Part shown: positions 2,788 through 25,740 of the stretch, piece after piece | Numbering within the stretch: the stretch's first letter is position 1 | How the letters are laid out: the number at the start of each line of letters is the position of its first letter | DNA from: an uncultured Coxiellaceae bacterium | Lineage (GTDB): Bacteria; Pseudomonadota; Gammaproteobacteria; DSM-16500 | DNA length: 49,875 nucleotides | Direction of reading: 5' to 3' | Assembly (NCBI GenBank): GCA_964427485.1 | Contig: CAYRUP010000001.1 | Coordinates: 1 to 49,875 of the forward strand | Made by a program: the position numbers and the translations under genes | The notes under the pieces: generated by a model | What the model was told of the DNA's origin: nothing | Seen by the model: only the letters and a program-made list of their open reading frames with translations | The model's database searches: none

Positions 2788-3388
2788 AGGTATCGAAGGC
2801 GTTGGTAAAACCACGGCAGTCCAATTTATTCAAAATTATTTGACACAAACCAAGCAGGAATTCATCGTAACGCGTGAACCAGGCGGCACTCCTATTGCGG
2901 AAGAATTGCGCCGAATTATGTTAACACCCGATCAGAAAGAAAATATCACAGCGGATACGGAATTATTATTGATGTTTGCAGCTCGCGCGCAGCACATTGC
3001 CAATGTTATTCTTCCTGCGCTACAAGCAGGAAAATGGGTCGTGAGCGATCGGTTTTCTGACGCCAGTTTTGCTTACCAGGGCGGGGGTAGAAAAATGGCT
3101 ATGGAAAAAATTCAAATGCTAACAGAATGGATTGTGCAGAATGTTTACCCCGACACGACTTTTTTACTGGATGCACCGCCGGCGCTCGGTTTGGCGCGAG
3201 CAAAAAATCGTGGGGCTCATGATCGAATTGAACAGGAAAGAATAGATTTTTTTGAACGCGTGCGTGAAGTTTACCTCGCGCGCGCAGAAGCTTATTCTGA
3301 TAGATTTGTCGTAATTGATGCGACTCAATCATTAGAAGATGTGCAAAATAAATTGAAACAAAAACTAGATATCCTTCTGACGAGGTAA
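2747..3388 (+). CDS. tmk: thymidylate kinase
   Basis: P-loop FITIEGIEGVGKTT and the DRFSDASFAYQGGG motif. ATG 2747 overlaps mltG by 41 nt. GTG 2762 (MQNKFITIEG, 9 nt after GGAG 2749-2752) is a plausible alternative start. Confidence 0.92.
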   Translation: MEKIPVQNKFITIEGIEGVGKTTAVQFIQNYLTQTKQEFIVTREPGGTPIAEELRRIMLTPDQKENITADTELLLMFAARAQHIANVILPALQAGKWVVSDRFSDASFAYQGGGRKMAMEKIQMLTEWIVQNVYPDTTFLLDAPPALGLARAKNRGAHDRIEQERIDFFERVREVYLARAEAYSDRFVVIDATQSLEDVQNKLKQKLDILLTR

Positions 3389-4404
3389 TGCTTATGGAAA
3401 CTGAAACGATTTTACCTTGGCAAAATTTAATTTGGGAATCATTATTAAAACGGCATTCTCAGGATCGTTTGCCGCATGCATTGCTGTTTGCAGGTGCTGA
3501 TGGGGTAGGTAAAAATCAATTTGCTCGCGTATTTGCAAATTATCTTTTATGTCATTCGCCTTTCGGTGAAGCACCTTGTGGCCAATGCCGCGCTTGTCAT
3601 TTAATTCAGGCTAAATCGCATCCTGATTTGAGATGGATTGAGCCGGAAGAAATAGGACAGATGATTAAAATCGACCAAATTCGTGAAGTAGTCGATTTCG
3701 TCAATGAAACTGCATTATTAGGTGGTTATCGCATTGTGGTTATTAGTCCCGCTTCAGCTATGAATATGAATGCGGCAAATGCATTATTAAAATCATTAGA
3801 AGAACCTACACCGAAAACAGTTTTAATCCTAATTTGTAATCAGAGTGTGCGTTTGCCTGCAACCATCAATAGTCGTTGCCAACGCATTATTTTTTCTAAA
3901 CCCTCACCCGAAGCCGCGTTGACTTGGTTGCAAAATCACGCGCCCTTATCGAAAGCTAATCTGAATGATGATGACACGCTGCAGTTATTATTAAATTTGA
4001 CTGAAGGCGCACCATTGAAAGTAAATGAGTTATTGGCCAATGAAACATTGACGCTGCGTAAAGAATTATACCAAGCGTTGTTACAGTTGAGTTACCAACA
4101 AGCAGATCCTTTGCAGTTAGCGGCGAAATGGCACGAAAAAGAAATACATACTATTTTGAATTTGTTGCAAAGTTGGTTGAGGGATTTATTGCGTTTTAAA
4201 TTATCGCAGACCGATGAAAGCATTATTAATGTCGATTATCAGTCGGCTATTGACAAGTTAACGGAAAGATTTACGCATGAAAATTTGTTACAGTATATGG
4301 ATCAGGTTCAACAAACCTATGCTCGAATGGTGGGTTCACTCAATATCAATCGACAACTTTTATTAGAAGAAATCTTTATTCATTGGGCGAAATTATGTTC
4401 TTAG
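3388..4404 (+). CDS. holB: DNA polymerase III delta-prime subunit
   Basis: HALLFAGADGVGK degenerate P-loop, zinc module CGQCRACHLIQAKSHPD and sensor INSRCQ. The start overlaps the tmk stop (TAATG at 3386-3390). Confidence 0.9.
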   Translation: MLMETETILPWQNLIWESLLKRHSQDRLPHALLFAGADGVGKNQFARVFANYLLCHSPFGEAPCGQCRACHLIQAKSHPDLRWIEPEEIGQMIKIDQIREVVDFVNETALLGGYRIVVISPASAMNMNAANALLKSLEEPTPKTVLILICNQSVRLPATINSRCQRIIFSKPSPEAALTWLQNHAPLSKANLNDDDTLQLLLNLTEGAPLKVNELLANETLTLRKELYQALLQLSYQQADPLQLAAKWHEKEIHTILNLLQSWLRDLLRFKLSQTDESIINVDYQSAIDKLTERFTHENLLQYMDQVQQTYARMVGSLNINRQLLLEEIFIHWAKLCS

Positions 4405-5183
4405 TGGATTCACACTGCCATCTTGATCAACTTGATCCAGCCACTCATCAAGGTGATGTCGCGAAGACGATTGCATTTGCGGAAGAACAGGGCGTCAAAC
4501 ATTTTTTATGTGTTTGTATTACGTTAAATGATTTTCCCAGCATGTTGAAGATGATCCGCGCTTATGACAATGTCAGTGCGTCAGTGGGTTTGCATCCCAA
4601 TGAACAAGTTTCATTAGCGGAACCGACAGCAGCAGATTTAATCGCATTAGCTGAAGACAAAAAAATTGTCGCGCTGGGTGAAACAGGCTTGGATTATTTT
4701 CGTAGCAAAGGGGAGTTGGAATGGCAGCGCGAACGTTTTCGTCAACACATTCGCGCGGCAAAAGCAACGGGTAAACCGCTCATCGTACATTCGCGGCAAG
4801 CGAAGGAAGATACGATTAAAGTACTACGTGAAGAAGATGCGGCATCAGTAGGTGGTGTATTGCATTGTTTTACGGAAGACATGGCCATGGCAGAAGAAGC
4901 GATGGCTTTGAATTTCTCTATTTCATTCTCTGGTATTGTTACTTTTAATAGCGCTAAAGAAATTCAAAATGTGGCTCAGCATATGCCATTAGAACGTATG
5001 CTTATTGAAACCGATTCACCTTATCTTGCGCCCGTACCTTATCGTGGCAAGCCAAATGAACCGGCGTATGTGCGCTATGTTGCCGAGTTTATCGCAAAAT
5101 TACGCGGTATTCCGCTTGAAGAAGTGGCTGAGCATACGACCGCTAATTTTTTTAAGCTTTTTAATCAAGCTAAAAAAACGTAG
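4395..5183 (+). CDS. ycfH: TatD-family metal-dependent hydrolase (YcfH-like)
   Basis: MFLVDSHCHLD N-terminus and the IETDSPYLAP motif. Conserved position after holB. Start placed at ATG 4395. The track start 4383 is a TTG that adds MGEI. Confidence 0.9.
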   Translation: MFLVDSHCHLDQLDPATHQGDVAKTIAFAEEQGVKHFLCVCITLNDFPSMLKMIRAYDNVSASVGLHPNEQVSLAEPTAADLIALAEDKKIVALGETGLDYFRSKGELEWQRERFRQHIRAAKATGKPLIVHSRQAKEDTIKVLREEDAASVGGVLHCFTEDMAMAEEAMALNFSISFSGIVTFNSAKEIQNVAQHMPLERMLIETDSPYLAPVPYRGKPNEPAYVRYVAEFIAKLRGIPLEEVAEHTTANFFKLFNQAKKT

Positions 5184-5220
5184 AATGAATAGATCGACCC
5201 ACATCCTCGAGATTGTAAAG

Positions 5221-5262
5221 CTCCCTTCTCCCGTTTACGGGAGAAGGGCCGGGGATGAGGGT
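5221..5262. repeat. R1 palindromic repeat, half copy
   Basis: CTCCCTTCTCCC-GTTTAC-GGGAGAAGGGCCGGGGATGAGGGT is one hairpin plus the terminal GGGGATGAGGGT box. It lies in the tatD-lolC spacer. Confidence 0.85.
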
Positions 5263-5280
5263 CTCTTTAAACAAGAGACC
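5260..5280 (+). promoter_or_regulatory. hairpin immediately upstream of the lolC start, covering the only purine-rich SD-like stretch
   Basis: GGTCTCTT (5260-5267) / AAGAGACC (5273-5280), 8 bp with a 5-nt loop, ends 5 nt before ATG 5286. AAGAGA is the only SD-like sequence there. Confidence 0.3.
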
Positions 5281-5285
5281 AACCC

Positions 5286-6536
5286 ATGTTCCGACCCGCA
5301 GCCATTTTTATCGGATTACGTTATACGCGTGCCAAACGTCGTAATCACTTTATTTCCTTTATTTCATTAATGTCTATGTTTGGCATTGCTTTAGGCGTGT
5401 TGGTATTGATCACAGTGTTATCGGTAATGAATGGTTTCGATCGTGAAATCAAAAAACGCGTGTTTAGTATGGTGCCGCCAGTCACTGTCAGTACCATGGC
5501 GGATTATGTTGTTAATTGGCAGGAAGTGGAAAGTTTGATAAAGAAAAATCCCAATATCATGCGGGTAGCGCCTTTTGTGAGTGGCCAAGTGTTACTGACT
5601 AATGATGGTTTAGTGCAGCCTGCCTTATTGGATGGTGTGGATCCTAACGCTGAAAAAAATATCACTGAAGTATCCAATAAAATGGTGCAAGGTAAATTGG
5701 AGCAATTGGTTGCGGGAAATTTTGGTGTGGTGTTAGGCGAAGAATTGGCGAATCGATTAAATGCGGTAGTAGGTGATAAAATTACGGTGGTGACACCGCA
5801 AGTCTCGCTGACGCCAGCCGGTGTTATTCCGCGTTTTAAACGTTTCACTGTGATTGGTATTTTTCGTGCGGGCAGCGGTTTTGGTTTTGATTCCAATTTG
5901 GCATTTGTGAATTTATATGATGGTCAAAGACTCATGCAGCTCGGCAACGCAGTAACGGGCGTGCATGCGAGTATCAAAAATGTATTCCTGGCATCCTTGG
6001 TTTCACAGCAATTAACAGCAGCACTGGGTCCCACCGCCCGCGTGACAAATTGGACAGAACAGTTCGGTGCATTTTTTCATGCGGTTCGTTTAGAAAAAAC
6101 GATGATGTTTTTTATTTTATTATTAATTATTGCAGTCGCTGTTTTTAATCTTGTTTGCACATTGGTGATGGTGGTGAATGACAAAGAATCGGACATTGCG
6201 ATTCTGCGAACTGTTGGAGCGACACCACGCATGATTATGACGATTTTTGTTGTGCAAGGTGCGATTGTGGGGGTGGTGGGCACTATCCTGGGCGTCATCG
6301 GCGGCGTGCTGCTGGCGCTTTCTGCGCCTGATTTGGTGAGAGGAATAGAACATCTCTTTCACGTCCAATTTCTTTCTTCCAGTGTGTATTTCGTCAATTA
6401 TCTTCCTTCAGAATTGCAATGGCTCGATGTCATACGGATTAGTTTTGCAGCGCTTTTTTTCAGTTTGCTCGCAACGTTATATCCCGCCTGGCGTGCCTCG
6501 CGTACTGAACCTGTGGAGGCACTTCGTTATGAGTAA
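5286..6536 (+). CDS. lolC: lipoprotein-releasing system permease LolC/LolE family
   Basis: 416 aa. N-terminus is MFRPAAIFIGLRYTRAKRRNHFISFIS, followed by a TM helix, a large periplasmic loop and three C-terminal FtsX-type TM helices. It is followed by lolD with overlapping stop/start. Confidence 0.88.
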   Translation: MFRPAAIFIGLRYTRAKRRNHFISFISLMSMFGIALGVLVLITVLSVMNGFDREIKKRVFSMVPPVTVSTMADYVVNWQEVESLIKKNPNIMRVAPFVSGQVLLTNDGLVQPALLDGVDPNAEKNITEVSNKMVQGKLEQLVAGNFGVVLGEELANRLNAVVGDKITVVTPQVSLTPAGVIPRFKRFTVIGIFRAGSGFGFDSNLAFVNLYDGQRLMQLGNAVTGVHASIKNVFLASLVSQQLTAALGPTARVTNWTEQFGAFFHAVRLEKTMMFFILLLIIAVAVFNLVCTLVMVVNDKESDIAILRTVGATPRMIMTIFVVQGAIVGVVGTILGVIGGVLLALSAPDLVRGIEHLFHVQFLSSSVYFVNYLPSELQWLDVIRISFAALFFSLLATLYPAWRASRTEPVEALRYE

Positions 6537-7209
6537 TTCAGTTATTGCCTGTTCAAATTTGGCAAAAATTTACCTCGACGCAGCCGCGCAAGTGGATGTG
6601 TTGCGCCAAATTGACTTAGCTGTAAAACCCGCTGAATTAGTCGCAATTGTGGGAAGTTCCGGTTCGGGTAAAAGCACATTATTGCATTTATTGGGTGGAT
6701 TGGATAAACCGACTACCGGCAAAGTTTGGGTGGCGGGTAAAGATTTGGCACAATTATCTGAGAATGAAAAATGTCGCTTGCGTAATGAATCGCTTGGTTT
6801 TGTCTATCAATTCCATCATTTGTTGCCGGAATTTACCGCATTAGAAAATGTCAGCATGCCTTTATTAATCCGTGGGATTCAACCAGAAATCATTGCAACC
6901 AAAGCCACTGCATTACTGGAATCAGTTGGATTGCAAAATCGTATGCAGCATAAAATTGGTGAACTGTCAGGTGGTGAGCGGCAACGTGTTGCTATCGCTC
7001 GTGCTTTGATTGCACAACCTTTATGTGTACTTGCTGATGAACCTACGGGAAATCTGGATCCACGCAATGCGGATAAAGTTTTGCAGCTATTTCTTGAATT
7101 ACAGAAAGAACATAAAACTAGCGTTGTGATGGTTACGCATGATAGAAATATTGCTAAACATGCACAGCGCATATTGGTGCTTGAGGATGGGAAGTTAACG
7201 GCTGCTTGA
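6529..7209 (+). CDS. lolD: lipoprotein-releasing system ATP-binding protein
   Basis: Walker A GSSGSGKST, ABC signature LSGGERQR and Walker B VLADEPTGNLD. Start at ATG 6529 (MSNSVIACSNL) overlaps the lolC stop (ATGAGTAA). The upstream part of track ORF 6382-7209 lies inside lolC. Confidence 0.92.
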   Translation: MSNSVIACSNLAKIYLDAAAQVDVLRQIDLAVKPAELVAIVGSSGSGKSTLLHLLGGLDKPTTGKVWVAGKDLAQLSENEKCRLRNESLGFVYQFHHLLPEFTALENVSMPLLIRGIQPEIIATKATALLESVGLQNRMQHKIGELSGGERQRVAIARALIAQPLCVLADEPTGNLDPRNADKVLQLFLELQKEHKTSVVMVTHDRNIAKHAQRILVLEDGKLTAA

Positions 7210-7213
7210 TAAT

Positions 7214-7312
7214 ACCCTCATCCCCAACCCTTCTCCCGTAAACGGGAGAAGGGAGTTAGTTGCTTGTCTCCCTTCTCCCAACGTAGTTGGGAGAAGGGCA
7301 GGGGATGAGGGT
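7214..7312. repeat. R1 palindromic repeat, full copy
   Basis: ACCCTCATCCCC-AACCCTTCTCCC-loop-GGGAGAAGGGAG-spacer-CTCCCTTCTCCC-loop-GGGAGAAGGGCAGGGGATGAGGGT. This is two hairpins nested in a terminal palindrome, beginning 5 nt after the lolD stop. Confidence 0.9.
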
Positions 7313-7361
7313 CTACACAACCCACCTTCCTCTTGATTATTTTGTTTTTATACCTTCATCC

Positions 7362-7392
7362 CCATTCCTCCTCGTAAACAGGAGAAGGGAGT
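7362..7392. repeat. R1 palindromic repeat, degenerate half copy
   Basis: ACCTTCATCCCCATTCCTCCTCGTAAACAGGAGAAGGGAGT is a decayed version of the left half of R1, lying 50 nt after the full copy. Confidence 0.6.
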
Positions 7393-7435
7393 TAACGGTT
7401 CCTCTATCTCTCTTACCCCCACTCAGGACTCACCC

Positions 7436-9721
7436 ATGCGCATGTGGACTCTCGCGTTTTTATCAGGCGTTTTACTATTACAACAATTTGCTCAAATACC
7501 CGCGCAATATTGGATTGTCATTGCGATTTTTTTTGCTTTTATTATCGAATGGATATTAGTAAAAAAGGGGCGCTATTACCGATTACTCGCAGCCTTGTTC
7601 TTCGGGTTTGCTTGGGCATTATTTTATGCGCATTGTATTTTGAGTTGGGAACTACCCAAGGAATGGGAAGGTAAGCCATTACTTGTCAGTGGTTATATTG
7701 CAGATATTCCTGTGGTTTCAGAACATAGAACAACATTTTTATTTAATCTAAAAAAAATTCAATCTGACAATGCGCGTACATTGATTAAATTATCCTGGCA
7801 AAACCCGCAAGTTATTTTGCATCCGGGCGATCAATGGCAATTTGTCGTGCACTTAAAACGTATTCATGGTTTGAGAAATCCGGGTGGTTTTGATTATGAA
7901 GCATGGGCTTTTCAAACAGGGATTCGTGCCAGTGGTTATATCGTCATGGAATCTCAAACCAAGTTATTAGCAAGTCATTGGTATCATTATCCACTTAACC
8001 GAATTCGTGAAAAGTTGAAAGAAAAAATTGAAAAAAATCTACCGACGAGTAACACATCAGCTTGGATTAGCGCGCTTGCCTTGGGAGAACGCCAAAATAT
8101 TTCTGCAGAAAATTGGGAAATACTTCGAAAAACAGGCACGAATCATCTCATGGCGATTGCAGGGTTGCATATTGGATTGATGGCAAGTTTCGTTTTTTTA
8201 TTAGTAAAAGGGTGCTGGCGACGCGTGACGTATCTCACTTTGAAAATGCCTGCACAATACGCGGGAGCAATCGCAGCTTTTGTTATGGCGCTTCTATACA
8301 GTGCATTGGCTGGATTTTCGATTCCGACACAGCGCGCGTGCATTATGCTTTCTATCACTCTCATCATGTTACTGATGCAGAGAAATACAATTGCATGGCA
8401 AGCTTGGTGTATCGCGATGCTTTGTGTACTTTTCCTAAATCCTCTCTCAGTACTGACAGAAAGTTTTTGGTTATCTTTTTGTTCGGTCGCCCTGATTATT
8501 TATGGCATCAGCGGGCGTCTCGCACCTAAAAACCTTTGGTGGAAAATAGGGAGAATACAATGGGTCATTGCACTCGGTTTAATTCCCTTAAGTATTTGGC
8601 TTTTTCAAGAATGTTCATTGATTTCCTTTATTGCAAATAGCCTAGCGATTCCTTGGGTTGGATTTATTGTCGTACCTTTGACATTGCTGGGCTGTTTTTT
8701 CTTATTATTTTCTTCGGTATTCGGTGGATTTGTTTTATGGATAGCAGATAAAACGCTCGCTGTTTTATGGATTATTTTAACTTATCTTTCCAGCGTATCC
8801 TGGGCATCTTGGTCAGTCGTGATGCCAGCACAGTGGATTTTATTTATGGCGTGTTTGGGCATGGTGATATTGCTCGTACCGGCAGGATTTCCTGGACGTT
8901 ATTTTGGGTTTGTTTGGCTGCTGCCTTTATTATTTTATCATTATCCAGCACCTAAAAAGGGAGAAGTTTGGTTTACATTGCTCGATGTGGGTCAGGGACT
9001 TTCTGCGGTTATTCAAACAAAACAGCATATTGTTGTATTTGATGCGGGATCGAAGTTAAGTAGTAATTGTGATATGGGAGAAAGTGTCGTCGTGCCTTTT
9101 TTACATTCTCGCGGCGTGAAAAAAATTGATATGTTGGTGATAAGTCATGGCGATAATGATCACATAGGTGGTGCGCCTGCATTAGGTGAACATTTTCCTA
9201 TACTAGCAGCAAGAACCAGTCATCCAGAAAAATTATTCTCTTTGCCGAGTCAATATTGTTTGCGCGGTGAAACATGGGAATGGGATAAGGTGACTTTCGC
9301 ATTTCTTTATCCACCCGCGGATAAATTAAATTTAGATAACAATAGTTCGTGTGTATTGCGTATCACAGATGAAAATGAACATCATATTCTACTGACAGGT
9401 GACATTGAAAAATTAGCTGAAAATTATTTATTGCAAGTCGATCCAAAAAATTTATCGACGGATATTTTAATTGCACCCCATCATGGCAGTAAAACATCCG
9501 CTGTGACGGAGTTTGTGAAAGAAGTGAATCCAAGTTATGTTTTATTTCCGGTAGGGTATCGCAATCGTTATCATTTTCCAAATGTAAGCGTGTTAGAAAA
9601 ATACCGTGCATTAAATGCCAAACTATTTTCAACAGTCGATGATGGTGCAATTCAATTTGCACTATCAACCGATAAAACGCCGCGGCTTTATCGATTAGAT
9701 CACAAAAAATATTGGAATTAA
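7436..9721 (+). CDS. comEC: DNA internalization competence protein ComEC/Rec2
   Basis: 761 aa. Polytopic membrane core with a C-terminal metallo-beta-lactamase domain (ISHGDNDHIGG, APHHGSK). Confidence 0.9.
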   Translation: MRMWTLAFLSGVLLLQQFAQIPAQYWIVIAIFFAFIIEWILVKKGRYYRLLAALFFGFAWALFYAHCILSWELPKEWEGKPLLVSGYIADIPVVSEHRTTFLFNLKKIQSDNARTLIKLSWQNPQVILHPGDQWQFVVHLKRIHGLRNPGGFDYEAWAFQTGIRASGYIVMESQTKLLASHWYHYPLNRIREKLKEKIEKNLPTSNTSAWISALALGERQNISAENWEILRKTGTNHLMAIAGLHIGLMASFVFLLVKGCWRRVTYLTLKMPAQYAGAIAAFVMALLYSALAGFSIPTQRACIMLSITLIMLLMQRNTIAWQAWCIAMLCVLFLNPLSVLTESFWLSFCSVALIIYGISGRLAPKNLWWKIGRIQWVIALGLIPLSIWLFQECSLISFIANSLAIPWVGFIVVPLTLLGCFFLLFSSVFGGFVLWIADKTLAVLWIILTYLSSVSWASWSVVMPAQWILFMACLGMVILLVPAGFPGRYFGFVWLLPLLFYHYPAPKKGEVWFTLLDVGQGLSAVIQTKQHIVVFDAGSKLSSNCDMGESVVVPFLHSRGVKKIDMLVISHGDNDHIGGAPALGEHFPILAARTSHPEKLFSLPSQYCLRGETWEWDKVTFAFLYPPADKLNLDNNSSCVLRITDENEHHILLTGDIEKLAENYLLQVDPKNLSTDILIAPHHGSKTSAVTEFVKEVNPSYVLFPVGYRNRYHFPNVSVLEKYRALNAKLFSTVDDGAIQFALSTDKTPRLYRLDHKKYWN

Positions 9722-17986: not shown

Positions 17987-18835
17987 TTACCCCAATTTAT
18001 AGCCTGAAGGGGGATTCATTGCACTGCTTCCCGATGGCGATGGGCTTCCTGATGAACCTTTTTTAGAAAGTAGCAACAAACCACCTCCGATGAAGGCAGT
18101 TAATGCGACGGTAGTTAATACTGCTATCGAATTCATTTCTTTTTCTTCGCCAGGTTGATCAGTTAGAGCAGGCTTATAAGCGTCAATCAGTGTGCTAAAT
18201 GGCGTTGGCGTACCGAGCAGAATATTTTTAACAATCTCATTATCTGTCTCAATTCGATCAAGTTGATAGCCATATTGATCATTGCGTTTGATGAGTGAAA
18301 AATAGGAAGTAATAGGACCAGGAATAGCACCATTACAGTCAGCAAACAGAATTGGAATTTCGGAATAAGTGCACATCAATTTAATCGTATTGGATTTTTT
18401 ATCACGCACAATATTCACTTGAGTAAATTCATTTGGGTACTGAATAATTTCCAATAAATTGACTGTGCTAGGACAGCGTATTTTTGCCAATAATAAATTG
18501 TATGTAACCATTCCAACTGCTTGAGTATTTGCTTCAATGATCGCATTCGCATTTTCTTTGCCGCCAAATAATTCAGATAATTTAGCAAGAATTTCATCAT
18601 CTCTGATTTTATTAATTGGTTTACCAGGGAAATAATCAGCAAGTGATTTACCTTCACATAAAAAATTTCTCTGCAAATAGTCTTTGCGAAATTGTGTCAT
18701 TTTTTCTTCTGAGCCTGGTTCAAAAAAACCGCGAGCAATAAATTGAGTCACATCTTTCATTAATAATGATGGAACAGAAGAAGAAAGAATTTTTAATCCA
18801 GCTTCTAATCGATAGCGATGAATAGTATGAGGCAT
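17987..18835 (-). CDS. hypothetical tail-anchored membrane protein (orphan)
   Basis: 282-aa ORF with GGAG 7 nt upstream of the ATG, 38 nt downstream of the NRPS-like gene on the same strand. It has a single C-terminal TM helix (IAVLTTVALTAFIGGGLLLL) followed by a GSSGSPSPSGSS low-complexity tail. I recognise no domain. Confidence 0.6.
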   Translation of the reverse strand: MPHTIHRYRLEAGLKILSSSVPSLLMKDVTQFIARGFFEPGSEEKMTQFRKDYLQRNFLCEGKSLADYFPGKPINKIRDDEILAKLSELFGGKENANAIIEANTQAVGMVTYNLLLAKIRCPSTVNLLEIIQYPNEFTQVNIVRDKKSNTIKLMCTYSEIPILFADCNGAIPGPITSYFSLIKRNDQYGYQLDRIETDNEIVKNILLGTPTPFSTLIDAYKPALTDQPGEEKEMNSIAVLTTVALTAFIGGGLLLLSKKGSSGSPSPSGSSAMNPPSGYKLG

Positions 18836-18873: not shown

Positions 18874-21800
18874 TCAAATGAAAATTTGCTTCCGCTTTCC
18901 TTCCGGCGTCGGTAAGAAACCAATTTCACAAAGATATTTCATGTAAAGACGTAATAATCGATCATTTAAATCAGGATAAGAAATTCCAGCGGTTTTAAGC
19001 GCAGCGATCGTGTGATTCATTTCAATTTTATACGCGTTAGGCGGAGTGATTTTTGATAAATAATGGGGTAAAAAAGAAAAGAGCGCATTTTCAGGACCAA
19101 TTTTGGTAAGATGTTGGCGCCATTCTTTGTGAGAACATAATTTGATTGTATAACCATAATCATTTAGCCATGCAATCAAATCAGTCCACATAATTCCATT
19201 CGGATGATCGATATGATAAACATTAGATTTGTCAGGTTTTTGTAACGACAAATTAATGATAGCTTTACTGACGAAATCAACAGGTAATAACCGAATTTGT
19301 TCGTGCCAATTCGGTGCAAGACCGAGTTGAATACAGCCTTTGATGAGCAACAATAAAGAATCATTCATGTTGGTAATGCCACTATCTGATTGTCCCCAGA
19401 TATGACCCGAACGATAAATCGAAACCGGTAGACCACGATTTTTTAATTGCGTCAGAAGGCGTTCAGAAACCCATTTGCTGAGTGCGTAGCCACCCACAAG
19501 TTGACTGGCATTGGCATCAGGAAATTCTTCTAATAGATGATTTTTATCATCTATTTTATTTGCTGCAGAAAGGGTTGAAATATAATGGATAGGTTTATCA
19601 TATTGCTGTAAGGCAAATTTAATCATTTCTATCGTACCTTGTACATTGCTGGTGCGTAAATTAGTGTAAGAAGTAATTGTATTAATTTGTGCACTACAGT
19701 GATAAATCAAGTCAATTTTTCCAGCGAGACTTTTGTAAAGCTCAACCGGAATTCCAAACTGATCATTGCCGACATCACTTTCAATCATCACGATCCGTCG
19801 ATTCGCTAGGGAAATTTCATCCGATAATTCATACCGATCAATATTCGTGATGAGACGTGTGGCAATGCTTTCAAATTTTCCTTTACGAATCAGACAATAA
19901 ATTTTTGCATCCGTATTGGCTAACAATTCACGTAATAGATAAATACCAAGAAAACCTGCGGAACCTGTCAGTAATATCCCTTGAGGATTATAAATTGAAG
20001 AACTTAATATTTTATTTGGAATGACATCATCATGTAAAACGGCATCCCGCGCAATTTCATCTTGTATCGAAGTCTTGTGAGTATAATGCGTTCCTTTTGA
20101 CTCAATATATTCTGCCATGATTGGAATAAACGGTAACTCAAAAAATATTCGTTCAGGAAGCGCTAATTTAAATTTTTGTAAGATACGTACGGATAATTCA
20201 GCGACGCGTTGGGAATTACCACCGATATCAAAAAAATTGTCTGTGATACTGACGGAATCTAAATTTAAAATATCACACCACATCGCATAAATTTCTTTTT
20301 CAATTTCATTACGCGGTTCAGCATGACTCCGTTCTAATAATCGCTCAAAATCTTTAGGCGGAGGTAATAAGCGCCAATCAATTTTTCCATTAAATGTTAA
20401 AGGCAGATTGGTTAGCGTACTAAAAACAGTAGGAATCATGTAATTCGGTAATTTGCGTTTAAGCGCGCTCCTTAAGCTACGCTTCGCTGCTGCGCTTTGC
20501 AGTGTTTCCATGAGATTATGCGTTGAAAGATAATATTCGACACTTTTTTGTAATAAATTTTGTTGTTTATTGGTTTGCTCAAATTGAATGCCTGCACGTT
20601 GTTCGCGCTGCCAAATGACTTTGCCACTTAACCACAATGCTTCGTTGAAACCCGGTAATTTTAAATTTAAGCGTACACTCTGGCCTTTGACTAATTCATC
20701 AGTCGCGCCGGTTAGGGCAATACCTGACTTTGAAATATCTTCACTTAATGCTTGTAAATAATGCATTTTGTCGATAGAGATGAGACAGCGTTCTTGATAA
20801 GGAATACGGATTTTATCTAGATTAGGTACAAGATAGGCGATTAATGTTTTAGCGCCATTCGTCAATTCTTTTGCAATAACAACCACTTCATTGACATCAG
20901 GATATTGATTCAATGCAGTTTCAATTTCGCTGAGTTCGATGCGATAGCCACTTAATTTTATTTGATGATCAATACGACCTACAAATTCCAAATTTCCATC
21001 TTTAAGCCAACGAACTAAATCACCCGTACGATAAACTTTTGCATCGGGGTCATCACTAAAAATGTTACGAACAAATTTGTCGCGCGTCAATTGTGGACGA
21101 TTCAAATAGCCTGCGGAAAGATTTGCACCGCCAATTAAAAGTTCGCCTACATTACCGATCGGTACCGGTTCCATGTGTTGATCAACCACATAGACTTCTG
21201 AGTTTGCCAGCGCTTTTCCTATGGGTGGCGGCAAATGTTTTGTGGCATCCGGTGGTGTATTTGCGTGATAAATTTTAATAAAGGTTGTTTCAATCGTTGC
21301 TTCAGCAGGACCATACACATTCCAGATATCGAATGGATAAATTTGCGCGGGATAATGCGCGAGCATTTCACCACCTAATTTGATTAATCTAAGACTGAGT
21401 TGATCAGGCCAAGAAAGATTAAATAACACTTGCGCATAAGCAGTAGGTAAATCACAAAGCGTAATTTTTTCCTGTACGAGCCAAGCCATGAATAATGCTG
21501 GCGAAAATTTCACATGATCATCGACTATATTGATATTTGCACCGTTTAAAAGAAAAGGAATAGTTTCACAAAAAAACGTATCAAAACCCTGTGAAGCAAA
21601 TTGCGATGCACGATCGTTGGAAGTAATATCAAAACAGGATTTATACCAATTGCTTAAGTTGACCAAGCTTGAGTGATTAATGATGACTCCTTTGGGTTCG
21701 CCTGTTGTGCCTGAAGTATAAATAACATAGGCATGCCGTTCATTACTATCGGATTTAACAATCGGTAATTGTTTCGGGAGATGCTTTACCACAGAAAGAT

Positions 21801-23010
21801 TTTCATCAATAATAACGGTCTTATATAAAAATTCCTTATCAATTCTTTGTGTATTGTTGACTAAAATAAGATGCGTTGTGCTATCTTCAATGATGAATTT
21901 AATGTTTTCATCGGAATATTTTGGATTAATTGGAACATAGACTGCGCCAATTTTAAATATGGCAAGCATGGTTGCAATTAAAAGTGGGGTACGTTCCATC
22001 AAGACAGCGATCGTATCTCCAAAACGGATTTTGCGTTGTGCTAAGAGATGGGCAATTTGATTGGAGATTTCATCTAATTCTTTGTAGGTCATATTGGTTT
22101 GGTTGTGTGTGATAGCAATATAATCCGGTGTTCGTCGCGCTTGTTGGATAAATAAATTATGCACGCATTCATTTTTTTTGACGGAAAAACGTTTGTATTG
22201 CAGTTTATTCCATTCATGCAATAATTCTTGTCTTTCTTCGGAAGTCAGAATCGAATAATGCGTCACTAATTGATCAGGATCAGATACAATTTTTTTAAGT
22301 ATTACGCGATAATGTTCTATTAAATTGACTAGACTATCTTGTGTGAATCGTTTCGTATTACATAAAATGCTTAATTTTAATGGAGATTCACTTTGCATAA
22401 TCAATACAAGTGGATAAATACCAGGATCTAACGTACTGAGATTTAAATTTTCTTTTTGAATGGAAGTAATTTTTTTCGATGGATAGAGTAATAAATAATT
22501 AAATAAATTTTTAAAGGCAGCGCTGCTTTGAGTTTCTTTGCCAAATGTTTTTATATGTTTATTGTTTTCTATTAATTTTGCTTCTGTGTTATTTAAATAA
22601 TTCAATATCGTTTCTTCTTCATGAATAGTCGAGCGCACTGGGAGTAGGGGCGGGAGAATAGATAATTCTTTGCTTTTAGTATTTTTTGCAATACACGCCA
22701 TCCCGTAAATGATATCGTCTGCAGTGGAATAGCGATTTAATAATAATCCCCATGCGCCATGAATAAGGGTGGAAATTGTTAGTTTATTTTTTACTACGAA
22801 TTTTTTTAAAATTTTTGCTAATTCAGAATCAATGGGAATTTCTTCGTGATGATAGGTGCGTATGTTTTTTCTTTTTAAGCTAGATCGATCGATTTCAAAA
22901 TCTTCTAACCATACTTTGGAATGTGAGGAAAAATTTTCAATGACATGCTTCCAATAGCCCGTCATAGCAGGCGTTTTTTTTGCAGATTTTTTTGATTTTT
23001 TGACAGGCAT
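18874..23010 (-). CDS. NRPS-like enzyme: truncated condensation-like domain, adenylation domain with PilZ-like insert, carrier domain, terminal thioester reductase
   Basis: A-domain cores are all readable: A1 MTYKEL, A2 FKIGAVYVPINP, A3 YVIYTSGTTGEPKGV, A4 FDTFFCE, A5 NVYGPAEAT, A6 GELLIGGANLSAGYL, A7 YRTGDL, A8 GRIDHQIKLSGYRIELSEIE, A9 LPNYMIP and A10 NGKIDW. Carrier motif is FFDIGGNSQR (Ser933). The reductase has the Rossmann motif LLTGSAGFLG and YALSK (YxxxK). The N-terminal ~260 aa resemble only the C-terminal half of a condensation domain. Confidence 0.92.
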   Translation of the reverse strand: MPVKKSKKSAKKTPAMTGYWKHVIENFSSHSKVWLEDFEIDRSSLKRKNIRTYHHEEIPIDSELAKILKKFVVKNKLTISTLIHGAWGLLLNRYSTADDIIYGMACIAKNTKSKELSILPPLLPVRSTIHEEETILNYLNNTEAKLIENNKHIKTFGKETQSSAAFKNLFNYLLLYPSKKITSIQKENLNLSTLDPGIYPLVLIMQSESPLKLSILCNTKRFTQDSLVNLIEHYRVILKKIVSDPDQLVTHYSILTSEERQELLHEWNKLQYKRFSVKKNECVHNLFIQQARRTPDYIAITHNQTNMTYKELDEISNQIAHLLAQRKIRFGDTIAVLMERTPLLIATMLAIFKIGAVYVPINPKYSDENIKFIIEDSTTHLILVNNTQRIDKEFLYKTVIIDENLSVVKHLPKQLPIVKSDSNERHAYVIYTSGTTGEPKGVIINHSSLVNLSNWYKSCFDITSNDRASQFASQGFDTFFCETIPFLLNGANINIVDDHVKFSPALFMAWLVQEKITLCDLPTAYAQVLFNLSWPDQLSLRLIKLGGEMLAHYPAQIYPFDIWNVYGPAEATIETTFIKIYHANTPPDATKHLPPPIGKALANSEVYVVDQHMEPVPIGNVGELLIGGANLSAGYLNRPQLTRDKFVRNIFSDDPDAKVYRTGDLVRWLKDGNLEFVGRIDHQIKLSGYRIELSEIETALNQYPDVNEVVVIAKELTNGAKTLIAYLVPNLDKIRIPYQERCLISIDKMHYLQALSEDISKSGIALTGATDELVKGQSVRLNLKLPGFNEALWLSGKVIWQREQRAGIQFEQTNKQQNLLQKSVEYYLSTHNLMETLQSAAAKRSLRSALKRKLPNYMIPTVFSTLTNLPLTFNGKIDWRLLPPPKDFERLLERSHAEPRNEIEKEIYAMWCDILNLDSVSITDNFFDIGGNSQRVAELSVRILQKFKLALPERIFFELPFIPIMAEYIESKGTHYTHKTSIQDEIARDAVLHDDVIPNKILSSSIYNPQGILLTGSAGFLGIYLLRELLANTDAKIYCLIRKGKFESIATRLITNIDRYELSDEISLANRRIVMIESDVGNDQFGIPVELYKSLAGKIDLIYHCSAQINTITSYTNLRTSNVQGTIEMIKFALQQYDKPIHYISTLSAANKIDDKNHLLEEFPDANASQLVGGYALSKWVSERLLTQLKNRGLPVSIYRSGHIWGQSDSGITNMNDSLLLLIKGCIQLGLAPNWHEQIRLLPVDFVSKAIINLSLQKPDKSNVYHIDHPNGIMWTDLIAWLNDYGYTIKLCSHKEWRQHLTKIGPENALFSFLPHYLSKITPPNAYKIEMNHTIAALKTAGISYPDLNDRLLRLYMKYLCEIGFLPTPEGKRKQIFI
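18877..19983 (-). other. terminal thioester reductase (SDR) domain of the NRPS-like protein
   Basis: Residues ~1010-1378 contain GILLTGSAGFLGIYLLRELL, IYCLIRK, HCSAQIN and GGYALSKWVSE, which is the pattern of NRPS/CAR terminal R domains. Confidence 0.8.
20482..20811 (-). other. PilZ-like insertion inside the adenylation domain (residues ~734-843)
   Basis: 156 residues separate A8 (678-697) from A9 (854-860), where roughly 50-60 is usual. The extra segment reads IRIPYQERCLISIDKMHYLQALSEDISKSGIALTGATDELVKGQSVRLNLKLPGFNEALWLSGKVIWQREQRAGIQFEQ. It contains a DxSxxG motif (DISKSG, nt 20722-20739) and a PilZ-style beta-strand pattern. The Arg motif is non-canonical (RIPYQER). Confidence 0.5.
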
Positions 23011-23022
23011 TACAATGTCCTC

Positions 23023-24651
23023 TCAAAAGGTCATCAAACTTCTTTCTTCTAATTTGGCGATTTTATTAAATTGTAAAATAATCTTTTGTTCCGGTAAGGG
23101 TCTGCTGAGGTAATAACCTTGCACGATATCACACCCATTATCTGCGAGATATTGCAATTGTTCTGCGGTTTCAACGCCTTCTGCCACGACTTTCATTCCA
23201 AGACTATGCGCCAGTGCAATGACTGCACTGATAATGGCGGTATCATTTTGATTGTAAGAAATTCCTTTAATAAATGTTTGATCGATTTTCAAAATGCTAA
23301 TTGGAAATTTTTTAAGATAACTGATCGAAGTATATCCGGTGCCAAAATCATCCACAGAAATATGTACGCCACTATTTTTGATACGTTGCAGTTTACTCAC
23401 TGTTGCTTCAACATCTGACATCATTGCGGTTTCTGTGATTTCAAGTTCGAGATATTTGGGGTCAAGTGAAAATTCCAAAAGAATACTTTCAACTAATTTT
23501 GCAATATCTTGATGTTGAAATTGTTTTGGCGAAAGATTAACAGCAACGATGACAGGTTCGAAGCCTTGTTGCTGCCAAGCTTTACTCGCTTTGCAAGCTT
23601 CGCGTAATGCCCATTCACCAATTTGCATGATAAGACCTGTTTCCTCGGCGAGCGGAATAAACTCAATGGGGTTAATCAAACCCAGTTCCGGATTTTCCCA
23701 ACGAATTAATGCTTCTACACCTGCAATTGAGCCATCATTTAAATTTAATTTTGGTTGATAATGCAGTACAAATTCATTATTACTAATGGCTTTTCGCAAT
23801 GCAGCTTCAAGTTTTATATGCTCATGTGCTTCCACACTCATTTCTCGAGTGAAATATTGAAATACGCTGCCACCGGATTGTTTTACATTGTGCATGACGA
23901 TATCGGCATTTTTTTGTAAATCTTCCAGTGATTCTCCATCATTTGGGTAAATACAAATGCCAATACTAATCGTCACCATTAATTCATGATTTTCAATTTT
24001 GATGGGCTCAGCACACACTTGTAATAATTTATCAGCGACGGGACTTGCAAATTTGGGATGTCCAATATCATTTAATAAAATGATAAATTCATCGCCGCCC
24101 AATCGAGCTAAAATATCACCCGAACGTAATACCGTTCTAAAACGATTGGCTATTTCTTTTAAAACGAGATCGCCTGCGGCAACACCCAGTTCATCATTTA
24201 TATTTTTAAATCGATCAATATCAATAAATAAAATAGCCATCATTTTTTTATGCCGGCTTGAATGGTGGAGGGTTTTGTTGAGCATTTCATGAAAAAAAAC
24301 GCGATTGGGCAATGAGGTTAAATCATCGTAATGTGCCAAATGGATTAAATGTGCTTTATGAAGGGTGAGTTCATTTTCAATTTGTTCGTGATCAGTGAGT
24401 TCTTGATTTAATTGTGGATGATTATCTATCGGCTTTGCAGGTGGATCAAGATGATTGAGTATCAGAAAATCGAATAGCCATAGAATAAGTAGTAATGATG
24501 TTGCCCCTAAGATGATAAAACTGATGGTATAAATGGGTGTTGGATCTGAGAAGCTGCGCATTAAAAAGAGTTTTGATCCAGTATAAGTTAGCGTGAGAAA
24601 ACTAACCCAGACTAGACCCACTCCAAATAATATTTTATTGCGCAACTTCAT
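23023..24651 (-). CDS. membrane-anchored diguanylate cyclase/phosphodiesterase (GGDEF with I-site + EAL)
   Basis: Two N-terminal TM helices. RSGDILARLGGDEF carries an RxxD I-site 5 residues before an intact GGDEF. EAL motifs are GVEALIRW, DDFGTGYTSISYLKKFPISILKIDQTFI and AEGVET. Start placed at ATG 24651 (MKLRNKILFG) 5 nt after AAGGAG. ATG 24774 is the long alternative. The stop lies 12 nt before the NRPS-like start. Confidence 0.9.
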   Translation of the reverse strand: MKLRNKILFGVGLVWVSFLTLTYTGSKLFLMRSFSDPTPIYTISFIILGATSLLLILWLFDFLILNHLDPPAKPIDNHPQLNQELTDHEQIENELTLHKAHLIHLAHYDDLTSLPNRVFFHEMLNKTLHHSSRHKKMMAILFIDIDRFKNINDELGVAAGDLVLKEIANRFRTVLRSGDILARLGGDEFIILLNDIGHPKFASPVADKLLQVCAEPIKIENHELMVTISIGICIYPNDGESLEDLQKNADIVMHNVKQSGGSVFQYFTREMSVEAHEHIKLEAALRKAISNNEFVLHYQPKLNLNDGSIAGVEALIRWENPELGLINPIEFIPLAEETGLIMQIGEWALREACKASKAWQQQGFEPVIVAVNLSPKQFQHQDIAKLVESILLEFSLDPKYLELEITETAMMSDVEATVSKLQRIKNSGVHISVDDFGTGYTSISYLKKFPISILKIDQTFIKGISYNQNDTAIISAVIALAHSLGMKVVAEGVETAEQLQYLADNGCDIVQGYYLSRPLPEQKIILQFNKIAKLEERSLMTF

Positions 24652-24710
24652 AATGGCTCCTTTAGATACAAAAAGATCAAGCCACCGTGGAATGCGGTTG
24701 GTATAAGTGT

Positions 24711-24719
24711 ATTTTAACA
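24711..24719 (-). promoter_or_regulatory. candidate extended -10 promoter element for the GGDEF-EAL/NRPS operon
   Basis: The minus strand reads TGTTAAAAT (TGn + TAAAAT), ~60 nt upstream of ATG 24651 and inside the long-ORF extension. This favours the shorter start. Pattern match only. Confidence 0.3.
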
Positions 24720-24804
24720 TATTATGCTGGCAGGTTTTTGCTATTTTGCGGTGTTTTGATCTTGTTGTGGTCATTCTTCTTGAGCGTAATTACAGATTTT
24801 CAGC

Positions 24805-24921: not shown

Positions 24922-25740
24922 TTATGTCCTTGATGATGGGCTACTACGTTGATGTTCTTGTAACTCTACTTCTATTGGAGATTCTTGCTTATCTTCTTTA
25001 CCTAATTTATCTAAATGAATTGTTATACTCCTATATAAGTTTCCTTTACTTTTTCCTTCTGTCACTCTCTTTTCAATAGTTTTTTTGAATTCTCTCAATT
25101 GATCTCTTACCGCTTCGTCAGATTCTGCTTTGTTTAATGCGAGAGCGAGTGTTTTTGCTATTTCTATAATATAATCTTTCCTCTCTTTTCTTTCTAATAA
25201 ATAATCCAATACGATATTTAAACTTGATGTTTTAACATCTTCAACGCTCGTCTTATTTTTTGCTTGAAAGATAGATTTCTTAATAGTTTCCTCAATTTCA
25301 ATTTCTCTTTTTCTTTTCCATAAAAGTTCATCCAAGATGACACTTTTTACCCTCGTTTTATATTCTGCCTCTACTTTTATCATAGCTGCGGAACCATAAA
25401 GTCTAGATAATTTTGCTAATTGTGCATCCACAACTTCTTGCAATCTTCCTGGCTTACCATTGAGCTGAGCAGAATAAAATTCATTTATTCTTTTTAATAC
25501 CATTAAAATAAGAATTATTTCACCTCGTGAACGGGTGGTGGATTTATTGGCGTCTTCTATGTGATCGAGCGCAGTTTCTATCAAGAAATTTTTTTTGTCA
25601 TAAAGAGTCTTATCATCGCTCCACTTCTCTTTGCGGCAATAATAAGTTAACAAGATTCCTCGCGTTGAATCTTTAAAATAATCAAAAGTATTAGATTCTA
25701 GGTCATAATCTTTACTTTCATACACGGCTCTATCTTTCAT
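24922..25740 (-). CDS. hypothetical protein, K/E-rich, predicted helical (orphan)
   Basis: 272-aa ORF in a stretch that looks markedly AT-rich by eye. Charged, heptad-like sequence (KRKREIEIEETIKKSIF..., LREFKKTIEKRVTEGKSKG). I recognise no domain. Confidence 0.6.
   Translation of the reverse strand: MKDRAVYESKDYDLESNTFDYFKDSTRGILLTYYCRKEKWSDDKTLYDKKNFLIETALDHIEDANKSTTRSRGEIILILMVLKRINEFYSAQLNGKPGRLQEVVDAQLAKLSRLYGSAAMIKVEAEYKTRVKSVILDELLWKRKREIEIEETIKKSIFQAKNKTSVEDVKTSSLNIVLDYLLERKERKDYIIEIAKTLALALNKAESDEAVRDQLREFKKTIEKRVTEGKSKGNLYRSITIHLDKLGKEDKQESPIEVELQEHQRSSPSSRT

Follow-up and report, generated by a model that had tools for sequence, protein, structure and literature searches.

The window analyzed here, 49,875 nucleotides of contig CAYRUP010000001.1 (assembly GCA_964427485.1) from an uncultured Coxiellaceae bacterium, carries a gene for a nonribosomal peptide synthetase (NRPS)-like enzyme (18874..23010; all window features given with coordinates below lie on the minus strand). 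Based on the 1378-aa open reading frame (ORF), its Pfam matches, and 111 homologues that share the architecture, the protein consists of a remnant of the C-terminal lobe of a condensation (C) domain, an adenylation (A) domain interrupted by PilZ, a carrier (T) domain, and a thioester reductase (R) domain. A gene for a membrane GGDEF-EAL protein lies immediately upstream (23023..24774). A first-pass annotation, made from the sequence alone, had read a PilZ-like module between core motifs a8 and a9 of the A domain, at positions 20482-20811 (residues 734-843). The analysis that followed confirmed that the insert is a genuine PilZ domain, seated in the a8–a9 loop of the C-terminal subdomain A_sub, since Pfam scores it above the gathering threshold, structure prediction and fold search return a PilZ barrel, and the AMP-binding_C profile is split at exactly this loop.

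For the insertion site, Pfam profiles were combined with alignments to solved NRPS structures. The A-domain core (residues 289-636; 21103..22146) matches AMP-binding with an E value of 2e-72 and contains motifs a1–a7, with the motif residues conserved. The N-terminal part of A_sub follows (residues 640-729; 20824..21093), bearing a8 and ending in the strand AYLVP; the C-terminal part (residues 844-885; 20356..20481) bears a9 (LPNYMIP) and a10 (NGKID), with Lys876 present in 110 of the 111 homologues. All ten core motifs, a1–a10, can be read in the protein, and the strings quoted in the first-pass annotation stand where it had placed them: GRIDHQIKLSGYRIELSEIE for a8 at residues 678-697, LPNYMIP at 854-860, DISKSG at 758-763, and RIPYQER at 735-741. 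Solved NRPS A domains align with the protein as far as AYLVP (residue 729). LgrA aligns through this strand and restarts at SLRSALKRKLPNYMIP (residues 845-860), and because it has just 7 residues between these two points, the surplus in the 1378-aa protein amounts to about 108-115 residues. The same break is seen in Pfam AMP-binding_C, for which only profile positions 1-36 of 76 are matched, at residues 695-730, so that the a8–a9 stretch is overlong, as had been claimed.

Within this surplus, the Pfam search proposed with the first-pass annotation found PilZ (PF07238) at residues 735-822, with an E value of 6.9e-11 and a score of 42.8 bits, where the gathering cut-off is 22.5, a match well outside what chance would give. 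PilZ is the sole Pfam family in residues 730-845, where methyltransferase, ketoreductase (KR), and oxidase families gave no match; an insert of any of these three kinds is ruled out. An alignment of 45 diverse homologues of the insert, hereafter A1, was used for an AlphaFold2 (AF2) model, which has a mean predicted local distance difference test score (pLDDT) of 85.6, exceeding 90 over the barrel, and consists of six strands and a helix. The barrel spans residues 733-812 (20575..20814). Beyond it, residues 813-843 (20482..20574) form two helices, assigned by DSSP to residues 814-830 and 833-849. What had been described as a helical linker of about 30 residues is indeed helical in the model, but it is made up of the canonical C-terminal helix of PilZ and a second, connecting helix that continues into the normal A_sub helix before a9. 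The predicted topology fits that given for canonical PilZ domains by Galperin and Chou (10.1101/814665), namely a six-stranded beta-barrel and then a long C-terminal alpha-helix.

When the model was compared with the PDB by Foldseek, all 43 best matches were PilZ domains, including those of BcsA, PA0012, Alg44, MapZ, PlzD/VCA0042, CeSA, MotI, PlzA, YcgR, and MrkH, with E values from about 1e-5 to about 7e-2 and target-normalized TM scores of 0.65-0.78 for single-domain targets. Most of these 43 matches are structures bound to cyclic di-GMP (c-di-GMP), among them BcsA, PA0012, Alg44, MapZ, PlzD, and MotI. A second AF2 model, covering the A domain, insert, and carrier (residues 266-985; pLDDT 84.8, predicted TM score 0.65), retains normal A_core, A_sub, and carrier folds and superposes best on structures in the thioester-forming state (EntF 5T3D, TMq 0.67; LgrA 6MG0, 0.64). 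Because normal folds are kept in this model and it fits thioester-state structures, the insert leaves the predicted A-domain fold undisturbed. With ten motifs kept and a foreign folded domain between a8 and a9, the protein belongs to the a8–a9 type of interrupted A domain.

To follow the insert across the family, a protein search was carried out that returned about 110 homologues with 41-81% identity, and 111 members were aligned with MAFFT. These come from metagenome-assembled genomes (MAGs) labelled Coxiellaceae, Legionellales, or Gammaproteobacteria, and from Aquicella lusitana; they share the architecture, and PF07238 is precomputed in nearly all of them, whereas the next-nearest NRPSs, at about 30% identity, do not contain the insert. 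Insert length ranges only from 113 to 116 residues across the 111 members and is exactly 115 in 101 of them. The barrel is nearly free of gaps, with a mean pairwise identity of 0.45, as compared with 0.52 for A_core, 0.57 for the R domain, and 0.26 for the C-lobe remnant, the least conserved part of the protein. An ordinary lineage-specific loop, the outcome that the first-pass annotation had named as contrary to its claim, is ruled out, since the stretch matches PilZ in Pfam, is predicted to fold as a PilZ barrel, keeps a fixed length, and has invariant motifs; an assembly chimera or frameshift artefact is ruled out by the presence of the insert, in frame, in 111 homologues from independent assemblies.

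The canonical c-di-GMP motifs of PilZ domains are RxxxR-h-x-h and [D/N]hSxxG (10.1101/814665). The second of these is read at D758-I-S-K-S-G763 (20722..20739), where D/N758 and S760 are found in all 111 sequences, G763 in 110, and the h position is always hydrophobic; the signature that had been proposed at DISKSG is therefore invariant but for one glycine. For the first motif, the remark that RIPYQER is not an RxxxR held, and the alignment now gives the register. Arg735, present in 111 of 111 sequences, corresponds to the second Arg of the canonical D-L-R-R-x-x-x-R-V-P found in related inserts, and it is followed by the expected h-x-h pattern, I-P-Y. It lies in the junction loop K733-I-R735 (20806..20814), which was delimited by family conservation and by alignment with canonical tandem PilZ domains, and this loop is 2 residues shorter than in canonical relatives. 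Together with D/N758, S760, and G763, R735 belongs to the few invariant columns of the barrel. A Lys or Arg at 733, two residues upstream of R735 and roughly at the place of the first Arg, is found in 104 of 111 members, and a further basic residue, R/K741 (+6), in 100; the conserved basic residues at 733, 741, and 805 are specific to the family, and those at −2 and +6 have no counterpart in cyanobacterial single-PilZ inserts.

An exhaustive profile search with A1 was then performed against 1.84 billion representatives, from which 422 proteins were recovered at E <= 1e-3 and 111 at E <= 1e-10. The 145 new matches were annotated with hidden Markov models built from the family's own domains. In 105 of the 145, PilZ lies between the two halves of A_sub, as a single domain in 68, a double in 34, and a triple in 3; the others are 12 fragments in the same context and 28 PilZ-only proteins. 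At least 105 further 50%-identity clusters therefore carry one, two, or three PilZ domains at the a8–a9 site. Many of these 105 are multimodular NRPSs of 2000-6000 aa; for three of the 105 the PilZ call was confirmed with Pfam, which matched one stretch in one protein, two in another, and three in the third. Named sources are Microcoleus, Pantanalinema, Aerosakkonema, Oscillatoria princeps, a Chloroflexota MAG, and Candidatus Parabeggiatoa. The hosts of the class are thus the A-T-R enzymes of Coxiellaceae and multimodular NRPS and hybrid NRPS–polyketide synthase (PKS) lines of cyanobacteria, Chloroflexota, and Beggiatoa-like bacteria; the genes of filamentous cyanobacteria and Chloroflexota sit in ordinary NRPS or PKS clusters. 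In Pantanalinema, two PilZ-interrupted A domains are encoded by consecutive genes, one of which is a C-A(PilZ)-T-R terminal module like the protein of the window, and in the Microcoleus protein P0121 a methyltransferase (M)-interrupted A domain stands beside a PilZ-interrupted one. The first-pass annotation knew of no such insert; the literature searched is indeed silent, but the architecture is no one-off, as it recurs in more than 100 other protein clusters.

Motif retention differs between copies. The second Arg is kept in 68 of 72 single inserts, and [D/N]hSxxG in at least 53 of the 72 and in 35 of 38 first copies of tandem inserts. Later copies, the second or third in the insert, are often fully canonical, with both RRxxxR and [D/N]xSxxG; RxxxR-h-x-h was found in at least 28 of the 68 non-first copies scored, a set that includes the second copies of PilZ-only proteins. 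Judged by their motifs, these canonical second copies would tie the insert class to c-di-GMP. Tandem inserts also carry, before the second PilZ, a segment xxVSDLRR that resembles the A_sub strand AYxVSNLxx before the first, and a partial duplication in the order AsubN-PilZ-AsubC-AsubN(partial)-PilZ-AsubC is seen in P0121 (Microcoleus sp. AT9_B5, residues 1858-2337) and P0124 (residues 635-1114). Because of this resemblance and these partial duplications, the sequences suggest that tandem copies arose by local duplication taking in part of A_sub. A different and unusual insert was noted upstream of P0141, in the same cluster of the Chloroflexota MAG (L022, 5121-9992), where an A domain is apparently interrupted by Radical_SAM and B12-binding domains, the Pfam order being AMP-binding, Radical_SAM, B12-binding, AMP-binding.

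The gene immediately upstream of the NRPS-like gene, assigned by Pfam matches to GGDEF and EAL, encodes a membrane protein of 583 aa in which the GGDEF, RxxD I-site, EAL, DDFGTG, and EGVE motifs are all intact. Of 18 informative related loci, 17 have an orthologue (58-77% identity) at this place, including loci in which the NRPS-like protein is only 43% identical. Some loci have a Gcw_chp gene separating the pair and a GGDEF-EAL protein with a CHASE4 sensor at its N terminus. The Gcw_chp (PF09694) gene is found at 7014-7862 in A. lusitana (L001) and at 7160-7981 in L003, and is absent from the window. The orthologues of these same two loci are about 830 aa long with a CHASE4 (and HAMP) sensor, whereas the protein of the window has a short membrane N terminus; for this reason, the lineage of the window seems to have lost the periplasmic sensor. 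The adjacency of the two genes is suggestive of a functional pair, and the GGDEF-EAL protein is the likely signal source for the insert.

Taken together with the insertion site, these observations point to a mechanism in which c-di-GMP, made or degraded by the adjacent membrane GGDEF-EAL protein, would bind at the junction between A_sub and PilZ, with the loop [K/R]733-x-R735 and the barrel face D758-x-S760-x-x-G763 as the probable contacts. By analogy with YcgR and PlzD, binding at such an inter-domain linker could fix the barrel against A_sub. A fixed barrel might then alter the swing of A_sub between its adenylation and thioester-forming positions, or the docking of the T or R domain, and in this way set the output of an enzyme that presumably takes an amino acid through activation, carrier loading, and reductive release; either activation or inhibition would be compatible with such a scheme.

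Several observations weigh against c-di-GMP control. The first Arg of RxxxR is missing, position −4 relative to R735 being Leu in 100 of the 111 homologues, and RxxxR is found in just 2 of the 72 single inserts. PilZ proteins, YcgR and Alg44 for example, usually no longer bind c-di-GMP once either Arg is mutated. A sequence search of the PDB with the family profile was weak (E values of 0.13-1.4), with PilZ proteins making up 5 of 8 matches at best E values of 0.13-0.4, the others including a nucleoid occlusion protein and cerebellin-4; sequence comparison with the PDB was too weak to stand by itself, and for this reason the fold search was needed. The weak matches include a Xanthomonas PilZ that does not bind the ligand and acts by protein contacts. 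As for the neighbour, smrA, udk, GGDEF-EAL, NRPS, ligA, and smc form one syntenic block, so that adjacency could reflect inheritance and is no proof of a functional pair. The third-closest relative (L005, NRPS-like protein 72% identical) has ankyrin-repeat and HATPase_c genes (3031-5732 of that locus) in place of GGDEF-EAL. Finally, GGDEF or EAL genes were not found within 10 kb in the four cyanobacterial and Chloroflexota clusters checked, and the GGDEF-EAL pairing is hence specific to the Coxiellaceae family. Because canonical RxxxR is absent while [D/N]hSxxG is kept, the motifs put binding of c-di-GMP by the insert at about an even chance. The larger reading, that the insert is a built-in c-di-GMP sensor controlling the A-T-R enzyme, is the likeliest of those considered but is likewise about evenly poised, as the half-degenerate Arg motif counts against it.

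The loss of RxxxR here, and in nearly all single-PilZ inserts, would also be expected if the PilZ fold had been kept as a nucleotide-blind docking or scaffolding module of the Xanthomonas PilZ–FimX type, which could tether the enzyme to the GGDEF-EAL protein or to another partner. The partners of the Xanthomonas PilZ protein are the ATPase PilB and, in FimX, the EAL domain, and the neighbour in the window does have such a domain. Moreover, in the PDB sequence search the Xanthomonas PilZ, a non-binder, scored much like MotI, which binds, and repeated loss of binding in PilZ lineages is documented (10.1101/814665). According to the same source, however, non-binding PilZ-related domains typically lose both motifs, whereas here [D/N]hSxxG and the second Arg are invariant in 111 sequences. 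The modelled barrel is complete, with six strands and the C-terminal helix, and differs from the reduced fold of the Xanthomonas type; PilZ domains that bind ligand are the best matches by structure; and tandem relatives bear fully canonical copies. A pure docking role is accordingly considered rather unlikely, though it is the most serious competitor of the c-di-GMP sensor.

The change of the Arg motif to [KR]xR, the loop shortened by 2 residues, and the family-specific basic residues 733, 741, and 805 could instead reflect an altered pocket for some other ligand, perhaps a different cyclic dinucleotide or a metabolite resembling a nucleotide, in which case the signal would not be c-di-GMP. 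Yet [D/N]xSxxG, which contacts guanine and phosphate, is unchanged, the conserved neighbour is a c-di-GMP enzyme, and to our knowledge PilZ domains are established as receptors for c-di-GMP only, which makes this alternative improbable. Least credible is a tolerated structural decoration derived from a PilZ gene, without a signalling role: the a8–a9 loop does tolerate large inserts, methyltransferase and oxidase among them (PMC8341866), but the length of the insert is fixed without gaps, its identity is 0.45 against 0.26 for the decaying C-lobe, its ligand-motif residues are invariant, and more than 100 clusters from different phyla have PilZ at this very site, in some cases duplicated to give two or three copies.

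Interrupted A domains have been reviewed by Lundy, Mori and Garneau-Tsodikova (2020, PMC8341866), with a8–a9 as the classic site and with inserts that are catalytic, namely M, Ox/MOx, and pseudo-KR; the first-pass annotation agrees with this account. In TioS A8-M-A9 (PDB 5WMM), as in the protein of the window, a foreign domain occupies the a8–a9 loop, the ten A motifs are intact, and AMP-binding_C is split there. In contrast to the tailoring enzymes of that review, which gives catalytic inserts only and does not mention PilZ, the present insert is a ligand receptor without catalytic function, small at about 115 aa with its helices counted, and it falls outside the described tailoring type. Two or three tandem copies, as found for PilZ inserts, are likewise unlike known tailoring inserts.

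PilZ is known to be fused in BcsA, Alg44, and YcgR-type proteins and to signalling domains, but AMP-binding or NRPS domains are absent from the PilZ architectures given in the preprint of Galperin and Chou (10.1101/814665), and full-text literature searching found no paper on a combination of PilZ with an NRPS or adenylation domain. The architecture is thus visible in public annotation, where PF07238 is precomputed, though apparently undescribed. BcsA and Alg44 are the nearest parallels, in that PilZ is covalently part of a biosynthetic machine, [D/N]xSxxG is conserved, and both are among the best structural matches; their PilZ domains, however, are terminal or sequential, have canonical RxxxR, and serve polysaccharide machines, whereas here the domain lies within another domain of a thiotemplate A-T-R enzyme. 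In YcgR, PlzD (VCA0042), MrkH, and MotI, the Arg-bearing loop is also the linker from an N-terminal domain to the PilZ barrel, and in these proteins the ligand closes the two domains on each other. Relative to such two-domain switches, the N-terminal partner here is A_sub, the barrel is tied to A_sub at its C-terminal end as well, the linker is 2 residues shorter, and the first Arg is gone. Tandem NRPS inserts mirror the YcgR-like layout, with a degenerate first copy, a canonical second copy, and the Arg motif in the linker (10.1101/814665).

An A domain interrupted by a signalling receptor in place of a tailoring enzyme appears to be new, and the structural claim is solid. We regard it as quite possible, if somewhat short of an even chance, that PilZ-interrupted A domains form a widespread, undescribed class, with one to three PilZ domains at a8–a9, that lets c-di-GMP act directly and post-translationally on thiotemplate lines through the A_sub lid. 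NRPSs are regarded as being controlled mainly through transcription and through trans-acting partners, and we know of no domain of an assembly line that has an allosteric switch for a second messenger built into it. Among direct targets of c-di-GMP, polysaccharide synthases, the motors of flagella and pili, and transcription factors have so far predominated. If true, the proposal would add enzymes of secondary or specialized metabolism to these targets as a new class of c-di-GMP output, and the insert would provide the first known case of an A domain that houses a regulatory domain without catalytic function; a receptor on the rotating subdomain would amount to a direct and engineerable on/off switch for NRPSs. 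Being chromosomal, conserved, and paired with one GGDEF-EAL protein, the Coxiellaceae enzyme is a clean candidate system for local signalling by c-di-GMP among bacteria related to intracellular pathogens; the hypothesis can be tested now, since culturable cyanobacteria have tandem versions that are fully canonical.

Outside the insert, the enzyme was assessed domain by domain. The condensation-domain remnant (residues 16-264; 22219..22965) matches only positions 194-456 of the Pfam Condensation profile, and HHxxxDG occurs nowhere in the 1378-aa protein, so that the complete C domain of a canonical C-A-T-R module is lacking. The carrier domain (residues 906-968; 20107..20295) is matched by Pfam PP-binding, with Ser933 conserved in 109 of 111 homologues. 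The R domain (residues 1012-1366; 18913..19977) is matched by NAD_binding_4 at residues 1014-1251 (E value of 3.6e-57) and has TGxxGxxG and YxxxK motifs; in NCBIfam, TIGR01733 and TIGR01746, the latter for this domain, score above their cut-offs. The catalytic residues of the A domain (a3, a7, and the a10 Lys), T domain (Ser933), and R domain (TGxxGxxG, YxxxK) are conserved across the 111-member alignment, and because of this the protein is, from its sequence, most plausibly an active reductive enzyme of the A-T-R type whose C-lobe is vestigial.

The nearest named enzymes in NCBIfam all score far under their equivalog cut-offs: MxcG at 578 against 2300 bits, AusA at 475 against 2500, Lys2 at 461 against 1030, and carboxylic acid reductase at 197 against 1300. 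The enzymes for myxochelin (MxcG) and aureusimine (AusA), alpha-aminoadipate reductase (Lys2), and carboxylic acid reductases share the A-T-R order and the thioester reductase, but the present enzyme differs from them in these scores and in a C domain reduced to a remnant without the catalytic His motif; we know of none among them with a PilZ insert. Cyanobacteria have terminal modules of C-A(PilZ)-T-R layout in which the C domain is complete, for example in the 1593-aa gene of L020. Since such a counterpart exists and only the C-lobe remains here, the Coxiellaceae enzyme may be a stranded terminal module. For substrate specificity, the code was placed by hand from motif anchors (D477, T478, C481, D520, K544, G546, V565, I573, E574, and K876); D520, K544, E574, and C481 are nearly invariant in the family, and the acidic residues at these hand-placed positions hint at a polar or basic amino acid as substrate.

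Among the related loci, L005 carries, downstream of its NRPS gene, genes for a thermolysin-like M4 peptidase, a D-Ala-D-Ala dipeptidase, and another ankyrin protein. Two ORFs flank the gene pair in the window, one of 272 aa (24922-25740) and one of 282 aa (17987-18835), for which no Pfam or NCBIfam family was found. The 272-aa ORF gave no tblastn match in 19 related loci, and the 282-aa ORF matched the closest relative (L004) only; by these comparisons, both appear to be lineage-specific genes inserted into an otherwise syntenic block. The 282-aa protein ends in a hydrophobic segment followed by a tail rich in Ser, Gly, and Pro.

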